DNA from: Acidobacteria bacterium UBA6911
Lineage (GTDB): Bacteria > Acidobacteriota > UBA6911 > RPQK01 > JAJDTT01
NCBI GenBank assembly: GCA_963579905.1
Contig: CAUZIZ010000007.1
Location: forward strand, 1,462 to 65,461
DNA length: 64,000 nt
Direction of reading: 5' to 3'
The translations under genes and the position numbers were made by a program. Numbering within the stretch: position 1 is the stretch's first letter; the number at the start of each line of letters is the position of its first letter. Of the stretch, positions 35,736-40,549 are shown one piece after another. The notes under the pieces are model-generated. The model did not search any database. It saw nothing but the letters and a program-made list of their open reading frames with translations, and was not told the DNA's origin.

Positions 35736-37708
35736 TCAAATAATGCCCTTCTGGTGCAGAGTCGTGACAGTCGAGAGCAAAGCCACTGCGAGAAAGAAAA
35801 GACCGGCCAGAAACAGACCTATCCGTGCAACCCAGCCGGGTCGCAATTGCGCCGGCAGTAGAACTAGGTTGACAGCCAAGGTGTGCCAACAGCTGAAGCC
35901 GAGCGCGAAATTCATGAGCAGGGTCGCGATGAAGAGCAGAGTTACCGGCGGTTCCAAGAGCAGTAAGATGATCCCAAGAACCGCGTAGGCCGCAAGCGCC
36001 GAGAAATAGACATAGCGAATGGACCTGGGGTCGAAGGTCCTGGCCTTGCGGCTGGCAATCCAGAAGACGTCAACCCAGCGCCGAAGGAATCCGTCGGTGG
36101 CGGGAGTGACCCCGCTTCCCAGAACCAAAAAGGCACACAAGAGCGTAAAGATCCAGAACAGATTTCCCCACTCGGAACCAACACCATCGCGTACCCCATT
36201 GGCCGTAATCAGAGCAGTCTGCCACTGGTCTTCGAGGAAAAAGCCCCGAGGCAGGAACATAAGAGACAACATCGCCGGCAACGCGATGCCAACGAAGCAA
36301 CTGGGCATCCAGACGGCCCACTGGTCACGAACCACGAATCGAAACCACTTGCGCCAGAGGGGGAGCGTATCGGTGCCCGGCTCGAAGACCATTCCCCCGT
36401 GTGAAAGCTGAAATTCTCTTCCCCCGATGATGCTGGGAATGGCACCGACATGAGCCCCCATCCCCCAGCCCTGCTCACGGGTATAGTTACTGGTTGAAGA
36501 GTTCCCCAGGCCTCCGTTTCCGGAAATGGCTACTAAAGCACCTAAAAACATCAAGATACTGAGGTCAACTTCCGGTAGAGGACGCCCTTGGATCAAGGCA
36601 GCGAATACGTTGTCCAGGTTGTCACCGTCGCGGATCTCATCACCGTCGATGTCCAGAAATGCGTCGAGCCTGCCGTCCCCGTCCCGATCGAAGGAGACTG
36701 TCCGATCGGGATTGCCGTCACCGGTGGAGTCGACGGCCAGACTCTGGTCTGGCTTTCCGTCACCGTCAAAATCAGGCCAGAATCCAGAACCGCCTCCGAC
36801 ACTGGGAACCATCGGATCTGGCCGCCCGTCCTGGTCCGCGTCGGTGGCATCCGGTTTGCCGTCGCCGTCCGTATCGAACTGAAGCTGGAGTGTGGGCTCC
36901 TTGACGTCCAGGTTGCCGTCGCCATCCCAATCCTCTCCCTGGTCGAGAAGGCCATTGAGGTTTGCGTCTTCGCTGCGCCGAATGGGAACGTTGCCGAACT
37001 TGAAGAACCCACTGGTAATTTCGGCCCACGTCTCCAGAGTGGAGAACATGCCCGCCAACAGCAGCAAGAATCCCATCACCAGGACGATCTTCGTGGTCAT
37101 GAGGACTCGGATCGAGTTGTAGATTTCCCCCCCAAAGACCAGAGGAATCATCGCCGCTAGAAAAATACCAATAGATAGGCCTCTGATTGCGAACTCATCC
37201 GCGGGGTTGCTGGCGGGATCGGGAATCGCAACTCGCAAAAGGGCCAACAGCGGAATTGCGCCGCTGGCAGCAAGGTACGGGAAAAACGACGCGGCATCGA
37301 ACATCAGGTAAACCGGCACCCAGAAGGCTGGTCCGGGAAGGGTGCGGAGCTTGCCCGCAAAGATGGGCTCACCGGTATAGAGGGCGTAGCGGCTTACCTC
37401 CACGTTGTAGAGGGCCTGGCCGAGGATACTGAGGGTGGCAGCCAAAGCAGTCCTCCCCCATAGCGAGCTGTGACCACAGGCCCCGTCAGCCATTCGCCAC
37501 CGCCAATCGCCGCCCCCGCCATGAAGAGTCCGGGTCCCAGCATAGCCACCCAGTTCCTCACTGTGAAGGCGGGCGGATGGGGTAATTGTCCGATCCCCCA
37601 GGCCGGCATCCGCCTCGAACCAGGCGTTGGGGCTTTCCCAGTGTCGACAACCTCACCGTCGTCGCTATTCGCGATCACTTGCAGCTCTTGGCTATCTGGA
37701 TTTTTCAT
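35736..37708 (-). pseudogene. Nramp-like membrane transporter with DxDxDG-repeat insert, one frameshift near 37440
   Basis: LGPGLFMAGAAIGGGEWL.GP..TARYGGGLLW|LATLSILGQALYNVE.SRY.LYTGE; a single missing base restores the frame. Confidence 0.85.
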
Positions 37709-38994: not shown

Positions 38995-39939
38995 ATGCGC
39001 GAGCAGCTGAGTCGCCGCAGGTTCTTTCAGTCAATGAGTGCTGTGGCCACCGCAGGCACGGCTGCGGCTCCCCGCGGAGAACTGGGGACGTTGCCTTTCT
39101 CCACTCCAGCGATGACCCGCCCGGGGATGCCCTTCGTCAATCCCAAGAAGGTGCTGCTTTGGGAGAATACGCGGAAGGAGATTCGTGAGTCCTTGGCAAG
39201 TGGTCGGGTGAAGGCCGCGATTCTTCCCACGGGATCGGTCGAGCAGCACAACGAGCACATGGCCCTGATCGCCGACGTTGCCATCTCGACGCTGATCTCG
39301 AAACAGGTGGCACTGCAGCTCTATCCAAGCGTCCTGGTCGCTCCCCCGAGTCCCTGCGGGTACGCCCCCTATCACATGGCTCGCAAGGGCACGATTACCC
39401 TGCGCAAGGAGACCTTCCAAGCCTACGTACTCGATGTCCTCGACAGTCTGAAAGCCCACGGTATCCGCAATATCCTTGTCTTGAACGGACACGGGGGAAA
39501 TCATCAGCCGCTCCTGGAGATGTTGCCCGTCTAGCGCCAGCAGCTGGGGATCAATCTCGACGCCGATTCCTATTGGAGCGCGATCCCGAAGGAGACTATG
39601 GATCAGATTATCAAATCCGAGAACCGGACATCCCATGCCGGAGAGTTCGAGACCTCGATTTACCTGGCCGCGTTTCCAGACCGGCTGCGCGCTTTTACGA
39701 TGGAGGCTTACGACCGGGCCGGCTTGAACTATGAGTCGCAGTTCGCCCCCGACATCGAGAAGTTTCTTGCCCACGATCGGCGATCCCGAGATGGGGGTCT
39801 AAAAGGCGAGAACACACGCGACCGGGCACGCCAGAAAGAAGCGCTGCTTGCGACTGCGGAGAAAGGCGAGACTATCGTGGCTACGGCTACGCGGTTCTTT
39901 GCGAAAAGGCTTAAAAAGATGATCGCCAAGGCGGAGTGA
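38995..39939 (+). pseudogene. Creatininase family protein, Tat signal, in-frame TAG at 39532-34
   Basis: PTGSVEQHNEHM..AD, LNGHGGN, SHAGEFETS; the two ORFs are in the same frame. Confidence 0.85.
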
Positions 39940-40549
39940 AGTCTGGACGTCGACGACGCGGTGCCCAAAGTGTCAACACACTCTCCGCCGTTTGTGGCTA
40001 CAGGGCTGGGCTCACGGGCGCTCAGATTCTCCAGGTCCTGAGGGCGGTAGGCCCTTTTCGTTCAGGGAGGACTCGCTTGGAGCGGAAACTCGCCTCTCAC
40101 GCGACGGCGTTTTCTGGGCAGACAATCGCGCCCGGTAGGTCGGAATTTAAGATTCTCTCGTCTTCATCGCTGCTCTCCGCAGGCATCACAGCCTGGCGCA
40201 GCATCGTTGGACTTGGGTTCGTGCTATTACCAGTTCTGGTCTTTGTAGTCCTGTTTGACCGGAAACCTGAAACCCTCATTCGGCCTGTAAAAATTCAAGT
40301 GTCACCTTAGTCCCGCTCCAGAAGCCCTGGCCCCATTCGAGAACGAAACTTTGCAATTGATGGAAGCCTGAAGCGCGAGCGAGGGGTCGGGGACCAGTGC
40401 AAATGTTCCCGACTCGTTTGCTTGCCTTCGCTACAAAGTCCGTTTGTTGACGTACGCCGCCGCGGCCCAACCCCTGGCTTTCGCTTCAGGATTCCCTGAC
40501 CTAAAGATCGATTAATAAACGGGTTATACCTTTGTTCCTCAGGGAAATC

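Follow-up and report, generated by a model that had tools for sequence, protein, structure and literature searches.

EF-hand-type loops inserted between TM5 and TM6 of a LeuT/Nramp-fold transporter family of Planctomycetota and Acidobacteriota

The 64,000-nucleotide (nt) stretch of Acidobacteria bacterium UBA6911 analysed here (contig CAUZIZ010000007.1 of assembly GCA_963579905.1, positions 1,462 to 65,461; hereafter the window) contains a secondary transporter gene on the minus strand at 35736..37708. The gene encodes 657 amino acids (aa) when read through a frameshift that divides it into two open reading frames (ORFs). The protein is a LeuT/Nramp-fold carrier and a member of the NCBIfam family NF037982, and the loop between its transmembrane helices (TM) 5 and 6 is an insertion that carries a dense array of acidic EF-hand-type motifs. 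We consider it somewhat probable that the gene belongs to an uncharacterised Nramp-fold clade in which a Ca2+-rigidified periplasmic TM5-TM6 ectodomain serves as a structural cap. A first-pass annotation had described an Nramp-like transporter with about eight Dx[DN]xDG motifs at 36560-36990, placed between TM helices, and had suggested Ca2+-regulated transport or cation capture.

The motif array was borne out. In an AlphaFold2 (AF2) model of the full protein, built from 91 homologs, the TM5-TM6 loop comprised aa 235-382 (~148 aa; 36564..37007, minus strand; predicted periplasmic) and was flanked by TM5 (helix 196-222, followed by a short helix at 225-234) and TM6a (helix 383-395). The motifs extend from the start of DANLNG at nt 36968 to the end of DIDGDE at nt 36636, a first-to-last span of 111 aa on the minus strand. 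The regular expression D.[DNST].[DN]G recovered seven of them (DANLNG, DWDGDG, DTDGDG, DADQDG, DFDGDG, DSTGDG and DRDGDG), and the eighth, DIDGDE, has the form DIDGDG in 79% of homologs. With the strict form D.[DN].[DN]G, six motifs were counted in the 143-aa loop, and eight with relaxed positions, each having Asp at position 9; the Dx[DN]xDG loop class is marked by such an additional acidic ligand shortly downstream of the motif. When the same D/G-rich loop was shuffled 20,000 times, the mean number of strict motifs was 0.31 and the maximum 4. All six-frame window ORFs of at least 100 aa (43,716 aa in total) held eight strict motifs, six of which lie in this loop. The motif cluster is not a product of chance. 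No DNA-level tandem repeat was found in the insert, and its expansion is therefore taken to be old.

Conservation was assessed in 91 full-length homologs and in family proteins from 80 species-level genomes. These came mainly from Planctomycetaceae, Pirellulales and Acidobacteriota (including Luteitalea, Vicinamibacteraceae and Terriglobia), together with 'Ca. Versatilivorator', and reached down to 34% identity. Loops 1 and 2 (aa 248-271, DANLNGLLDQGE and DWDGDGNLDVKE; 36897..36968, minus strand) are back-to-back 12-residue EF-hand-type loops that form a conserved base, with the consensus E-D-x-N-x-N-G-x-L-D-x-G-E-D-W-D-x-D-G-x-L-D-x-x-E. Among the 91 homologs, positions 1, 3, 5, 9 and 12 of these loops were conserved in 94-100%, and Asp, Asn or Glu occupied them in 99-100%, versus ~4% at the other positions. 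Gly at position 6 was found in 85-93% and Leu at position 8 in 85-95%. The remaining positions were mostly free, except for Gly at position 11 of loop 1 and Trp at position 2 of loop 2, which were conserved. In sequence, both loops are canonical EF-hand loops (12 residues, O-ligand positions 1, 3, 5, 9 and 12, Gly 6, hydrophobic 8), and loop 2 has five carboxylates (D1, D3, D5, D9 and E12). The double loop was recognised by a strict regular expression in 89 of the 91 aligned members and in 74 of 79 locus proteins.

Loops 3-7 (aa 279-352; 36654..36875, minus strand) form a variable middle, whose motif positions were conserved in 36-96%; loops 5-7 follow a 14-aa period, x-x-D-x-D-G-D-G-x-P-D-x-x-V. 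The terminal loop 8 (aa 353-367, DIDGDEIRDGDNLDN; 36609..36653, minus strand) leads to a short helix and then to TM6a. Its consensus is D-x-D-G-D-G-x-R-D-G-D-N-x-x-N, in which D355, D361 and G362 were invariant and D353, D357 and N367 were conserved in at least 96%. The pattern of conservation is that expected of metal-ligand positions in EF-hand-type loops, and the Pfam models FG-GAP, FG-GAP_3 and EF-hand_5 match many of the inserts; the loops would be expected to bind Ca2+.

The loop was compared with its counterpart in relatives with and without the expansion. The best 120 relatives of the window protein (90%-identity clusters) were all 522-753 aa long, and the expanded loop was present in 78 of the 80 best genome loci. 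A Pirellulales metagenome-assembled genome (MAG; locus L058) encodes a 483-aa paralog (L058a), and a 603-aa paralog follows immediately downstream. Both proteins have the TM1 and TM6 motifs, and the TM5-TM6 connector, FGYLPQQVDW in the short form (YLPQQV, 6 residues), is expanded to 91 residues in the long form. L058a scored 150.1 bits to NF037982 in one continuous stretch, and the best 120 of its 1741 hits were 392-571 aa long, that is, insert-less. These insert-less NF037982 paralogs (P0121-P0240 and the 483-aa gene of L058) are likewise uncharacterised. They resemble the window family in their IGGGEWL TM1 break, G[SN]GG(I/L)xN TM6 motif, 11 helices and NY/WxRDxGxGMG...VGAIPS..GG segment, as well as in the NCBIfam model that they match and the phyla that they come from. 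They differ in having a 6-residue connector (FGYLPxxxDW) in place of 67-250 aa. In a neighbour-joining tree of 474 well-aligned core columns, the clade with 6-aa loops stood apart from the clade with loops of 67-212 aa. The loop is a true insertion, as a large sister family in the same phyla has 6 residues at the site and both forms occur side by side in one MAG.

Copy number varied widely across the clade in which the insert is conserved, with loop lengths of 67-250 aa and 0-10 strict motifs in the 91 homologs and 80 loci. The middle is absent from loops of 72-76 aa. It consists of one or two DxDGDGxPD loops in forms of 90-92 aa, which are typical of Pirellulales and Acidobacteriota, and of five loops in the Planctomycetaceae-lineage form to which the window gene belongs (142-148 aa). 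Other middles were also seen. In locus L053 (8016-10283), two copies of a beta-rich unit of ~75 aa are nested within the conserved EF loops, and L076 and L080 have a different ~100-aa beta-rich middle between conserved ends. In the core tree, L009 and L021 have nearly identical cores and inserts of 143 aa and 95 aa, respectively, which suggests either that ~3 loops were recently gained or lost or that paralogs recombined. Tandem paralog pairs were rare, occurring in two of the 80 loci: L058 (7323-8774 and 8927-10738) and L019 (8019-9791 and 9886-10788), the latter with a second family ORF after the insert-bearing gene that is cut by the contig end. Such pairs could hint at a heteromer or at subfunctionalisation.

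In the full AF2 model, the insert had a predicted local distance difference test (pLDDT) score of 79-94 and consisted of short strands alternating with loops, without flanking helices; it is thus modelled as folded rather than disordered. The E and F helices that flank EF-hand loops were not present: the loops abut (E259 is followed by D260), and DSSP assigned no helix within aa 245-362. Pfam searches of 40 individual inserts matched DUF6802 in 25, FG-GAP_3 in 15 (best E = 2.8e-7), FG-GAP in 14 and EF-hand_5 in 10. TSP3, RTX, dockerin and Calx-beta were rejected as identities for the module, as hmmscan at E <= 1 matched none of them in the 40 inserts; Cys, as found in TSP3 repeats, and GGxGxD nonapeptides, as found in RTX repeats, are both absent from the insert. 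An FG-GAP beta-propeller (seven blades of ~60 aa) was also rejected, as the domain measures 73-170 aa in most members and Foldseek found no propeller.

A profile of the insert matched, among PDB sequences, only an EF-hand-derived lanthanide-binding tag construct (E = 0.26), and it returned only 357 hits from 1.84 billion representative proteins. The strongest hits outside the family were giant proteins of 1.5-6.4 kaa (thousand aa) with beta-helix regions and 10-21 tandem EDxNGNGxLDPGED units. Beta_helix matches were obtained in the two giant proteins scanned, P0244 (1599 aa) and P0245; P0246 was among the others found. The tandem double-loop units were recognised by no Pfam model and look like an undescribed extracellular Ca2+-loop repeat. 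The insert shares its linear motif and ligand spacing with these units and with the 'calcium blades' of FG-GAP proteins; unlike them, it lies inside a membrane transporter, and at 143 aa it is too short for a propeller. Its building block is a linear Ca2+-loop motif also found in large repeat proteins; it is no mobile globular domain with a known fold. The motif falls within the Dx[DN]xDG class reviewed by Rigden et al. (PMC3123361), who list no transporter context.

The transporter core was assigned by family models and by fold. The 657-aa read-through protein matched NF037982 ('Nramp_1') with 116.9 bits (curated cutoff, 50 bits), the match being divided in two by the insert. The full AF2 model (mean pLDDT 83.8, predicted template modelling score 0.86) has the LeuT-type 5+5 inverted-repeat fold, with TM1 broken at aa 68-70 and TM6 broken after aa 395. 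Foldseek comparison of this model with the PDB returned DraNramp, EcoDMT, Bacteroides fragilis Nramp, EleNRMT, YcsG and KCC/NKCC carriers. Target-normalised TM-scores were 0.57-0.74 for DraNramp, EcoDMT and EleNRMT and ~0.7 to DraNramp, EleNRMT and YcsG; the top match was KCC1. The designation Nramp-like therefore stands for the fold and for NF037982. It does not stand for the three features that define Nramp/SLC11 proteins. Pfam Nramp (PF01566) gave no match at E <= 1 in hmmscan of the read-through protein. The TM1 break reads GGGE (aa 69-72; 37493..37504, minus strand) where Nramp proteins have the metal-site motif DPGN, a correspondence given both by hidden Markov model alignment to B. fragilis Nramp 10ky and by hhalign to E. 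coli MntH. The Ala-x-x-Met-Pro-His motif of Nramp TM6 is absent, with no Met-Pro-His in TM6, which instead breaks at AISGNGGLGN (family form G[NS]GGL).

In the family alignment, G69, G70 and G71 were invariant and E72 nearly so. The TM6 break and the NYTR[DE]QGWGMG motif that follows it (aa 394-418; 36456..36530, minus strand) contained the invariant columns G397, G399, G400, L401, N403, S407-R411 and W415-G418; the AF2 model had pLDDT <50 at aa 404-417. Against PDB sequences, the full-family profile gave a marginal TM1-TM2 match to B. fragilis Nramp only (E = 0.008), plus weak matches to uL4. The protein is not a canonical Nramp, and a divalent-metal substrate therefore cannot be assumed. Nramp/SLC11 proteins (MntH, DMT1) and the NRMT Mg2+ transporters share with the family the LeuT-type fold (target-normalised Foldseek TM-scores of 0.65-0.74), an alignable TM1-TM2 and the NCBI Nramp annotation. 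They differ from it in that the family has ~50 extra conserved residues after TM6 and a large ectodomain without counterpart.

The most conserved segment of the family is aa 401-473 (window ~36291-36509, minus strand), with the pattern NYTR[DE]QGWGMGxHVGAIPSxxGG...H.G.VF...W[RK]xW. It is common to the insert-less clade, is probably cytoplasmic and was modelled with pLDDT from <50 to 66. The segment weakly resembles residues ~62-138 of eukaryotic and archaeal ribosomal protein uL4 (E = 0.02-0.5); the pattern match is striking and probably due to chance.

The structural cap that we favour can be set out as follows. The clade consists of LeuT-fold/NF037982 secondary transporters, mainly of Planctomycetota and Acidobacteriota, in which the short TM5-TM6 connector, predicted to be periplasmic and 6 residues long in the sister clade, has been expanded into an ectodomain. 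The conserved base of this domain comprises the two back-to-back EF-hand-type loops and the DxDGDGxRDGDN loop that runs into the gating helix TM6a. Its middle is lineage-specific, with five DxDGDGxPD loops separated by short beta-strands in the Planctomycetaceae lineage. The side chains at positions 1, 3, 5, 9 and 12 of each loop would serve as ligands for Ca2+. The ion may then act as structural glue, much as disulfides do in the extracellular domain that KCC carriers have at this site, and convert the acidic loop into a rigid cap bridging TM5 and TM6a above the outer vestibule.

The N-terminus of Nramp proteins is cytoplasmic, as established for MntH and DraNramp, and by homology with this topology the insert is predicted to face the periplasm. 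Seawater contains ~10 mM Ca2+. Because the insert would face the Ca2+-rich periplasm of seawater organisms, its EF-type sites would be permanently filled. Calcium is normally abundant in the periplasm, and for this reason a structural role seems likelier than the Ca2+-regulated transport put forward by the first-pass annotation.

Several observations tell against the cap. The periplasmic orientation comes from homology with Nramp topology and not from a direct topology test, that the ectodomain touches the outer gate is itself inferred, and AF2 predictions model no ions. When the insert was modelled alone, confidence was moderate (pLDDT 76) and Foldseek found no match to the isolated model in the PDB below E = 7, so that the architecture of the domain is without independent support. 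The motifs have degenerated or been lost in L077, and L074 (2218-4257) carries at the same site an unrelated 182-aa insert without Dx[DN]xDG motifs; the transporter core can therefore do without the Ca2+ loops. The gene contexts of the relatives P0004, P0075 and P0133 all differ and give no pointer to a substrate.

Four other explanations were weighed. The domain could be a Ca2+ sensor whose loop occupancy tracks external Ca2+ and opens or closes the outer gate through the links of loop 8 to TM6a and loop 1 to TM5. The two helices to which the module is joined do move during the LeuT/Nramp cycle, the invariant loops (1, 2 and 8) are those adjoining these helices, and Ca2+ modules regulate both NCX (CBD1/2, in the TM5-TM6 loop) and the EF-hand carriers of the SLC25 family. 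A sensor nevertheless appears unlikely: the domain is predicted to be periplasmic, EF-type sites would be saturated at the Ca2+ concentration of seawater, and eight or more sites in freely variable number are more like scaffolding than a tuned sensor. Cation capture would take the form of an antenna, in which the acidic loops capture the di- or trivalent cation to be transported (Ca2+, Mg2+, Mn2+ or a lanthanide), concentrate it above the vestibule and pass it to the transport site. The NCBI family name (divalent metal transporter), the invariant Glu at the TM1 break, the five carboxylates of loop 2 and the lanthanide-binding tag as the only PDB sequence match all point in this direction. The match to the tag is weak, however, and reflects only the generic EF-loop consensus; ion release from EF-type sites is slow relative to transport; and the insert-less sister family, with the same TM1 and TM6 motifs, needs no antenna. 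The claim is weakened further by the loss of the Nramp metal site (GGGE for DPGN, G[NS]GGL for the motif with Met-Pro-His) and of any Pfam Nramp match, and we regard an antenna as distinctly unlikely. A bolder version, to which we attach a similarly low probability, makes the ectodomain a metal-handling device (a Ca2+-operated lid or a selective cation antenna) and not a scaffold. It would feed a carrier with a new class of substrate, defined by the GGGE/G-N-G-G site; in view of the five-carboxylate loops, the metal could conceivably be a trivalent or rare one.

The ectodomain might also be a Ca2+-stabilised platform for oligomerisation or a docking site for a binding protein, envelope component or other partner in the periplasm. 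The extracellular domain at the same site of KCC1 makes homotypic contacts (PMC9271165), the variable middle and the nested beta-rich modules of L053, L076 and L080 resemble a surface evolving for partners, and L058 pairs an insert-less with an insert-bearing gene in tandem. Set against this, no neighbouring gene is conserved in the 80 loci and tandem pairs are confined to two of them, which leaves a platform very unlikely in our estimate. Finally, the loop could be a tolerant segment that underwent neutral acidic low-complexity expansion, with neither specific metal binding nor function. Its length varies from 67 to 250 aa, its motifs are lost in L077 and replaced in L074, and Asp-rich runs readily generate Dx[DN]xDG motifs (PMC3123361). 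Neutral expansion is hard to reconcile with residues that are invariant at ligand positions across homologs as distant as 34% identity, with the high AF2 confidence for the insert, or with a motif number far above that of composition-matched shuffles, and it is the least credible of these explanations.

Calcium-binding modules have been grafted onto other secondary transporters. NCX carries the Calx-beta Ca2+-binding domains CBD1 and CBD2 in its TM5-TM6 loop, the same interval as here, and SLC25 carriers (aralar/citrin and SCaMC) bear EF-hand domains. These modules differ from the insert in being cytosolic, in sensing signalling Ca2+ and in being built of Ig-like Calx-beta domains or helix-loop-helix EF pairs; neither a Calx-beta domain nor a paired EF-hand domain was detected by hmmscan of the whole protein and the 40 inserts. 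KCC1-4 are LeuT-fold carriers in which, as in the window protein, the TM5-TM6 loop forms an extracellular domain, of ~120 aa in KCC1 (PMC9271165). There is no sequence relationship, and the KCC domain is eukaryotic, glycosylated, rigidified by disulfides and not built of Ca2+ loops. The statement in the first-pass annotation that no characterised example was known accordingly holds for the Nramp fold and the site of insertion. It does not hold for the principle, for which NCX, SLC25 and the KCC1 extracellular domain are precedents.

The window copy of the gene is interrupted. The N-terminus and TM1 are encoded by an ORF of 104 aa (37394..37708, minus strand), and the remainder, including the eight loop motifs, by an ORF of 585 aa in another frame (35736..37493, minus strand); the first 90 codons, which contain TM1, are out of frame with the rest of the gene. 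The first ORF reads ...LGPGLFMAGAAIGGGEWLTGPVVTARYGGGLLWL, and homologs continue uninterrupted as ...GGGLLWLATLSILGQ..., reading ...GGGLLWL/ATLSILGQ... across the site marked by the slash. A single G (plus-strand reading) is missing between 37439 and 37440, and its insertion behind 37439 gave exactly one uninterrupted ORF of 657 aa. The runs holding the window sequence were seawater or marine metagenomes. The same lesion was present in Logan contigs from three 2019 seawater metagenomes (X1-X3) at 10-14x depth. Contigs from X4 and X5 (both 2024), X6 (2025) and X8 (2017), which were ~99% identical, had the extra G behind 37439. Sequencing error is an unlikely cause, as independent contigs from three runs reproduced the lesion at that depth. 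Programmed frameshifting was rejected: no slippery heptamer is present at the site, and close relatives simply have one more G. The window copy is a recent pseudogene with a 1-nt deletion in its TM1 coding region and is otherwise intact. An intact allele is present in other seawater metagenomes.

A second, independent null allele was seen in X5 and X8. These contigs have the restoring G and lack 16 nt at 37500 (window 37500-37515), lost between GGCGG-type short repeats in the TM1 coding region, which leads to a stop at codon 69. The contigs of X4 and X6 were intact over the stretch they covered (37306/37316 onward, TM1 included). The transporter gene seems to have been lost recurrently in the marine lineage.

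No conserved partner gene was found among 1,937 clustered ORFs from the 80 loci, and apparent neighbour clusters proved to be antisense ORFs within the transporter gene itself. In the window, a class IV aminotransferase gene lies 27 bp downstream of the transporter gene, and the other neighbours encode amidohydrolase_2, creatininase, an arylmalonate-decarboxylase-like protein and a Gfo/Idh/MocA oxidoreductase. This context was not shared by an 84%-identical ortholog. As a speculation, the Gly-rich break of TM6 and the invariant Glu-Trp at that of TM1 would suit a substrate that is cationic or zwitterionic and exceeds a bare transition-metal ion in size. The creatininase-family gene (PF02633; window 38995-39940, plus strand), ~1.3 kb beyond the transporter start, has an in-frame TAG at 39532-39534, after which recognisable creatininase sequence continues. 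The TAG was present in contigs of both X1 (2019) and X5, and the gene is either a second decaying gene of the neighbourhood or a stable split.

Literature searches on the family or architecture (Nramp with Planctomycetes, calcium-binding, EF-hand or FG-GAP; DxDxDG with transporter) returned nothing. The parts are known; their specific combination, an array of helix-less EF-type loops as the periplasmic domain of a bacterial Nramp-fold carrier, is new. The analysis defines a widespread and wholly uncharacterised LeuT/Nramp-fold subfamily in Planctomycetota and Acidobacteriota, for which the automatic names 'Nramp family divalent metal transporter' and 'MntH' are not backed by metal-site residues. 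Were the ectodomain a metal-handling device after all, it would be the first case of an extracellular array of EF loops that gates or feeds a LeuT-fold transporter in bacteria. The cultured organism Polystyrenella longa Pla110 offers an intact ortholog (locus Pla110_11580; P0075). The family also supplies natural controls: an insert-less sister clade, sometimes encoded next door, lineages with 3-10 loops, one degenerate member and others with a different module. Because of these controls, the effect of a TM5-TM6 extracellular domain on the LeuT-fold transport cycle is directly testable, and the same question applies to the extracellular domain of the KCC carriers.

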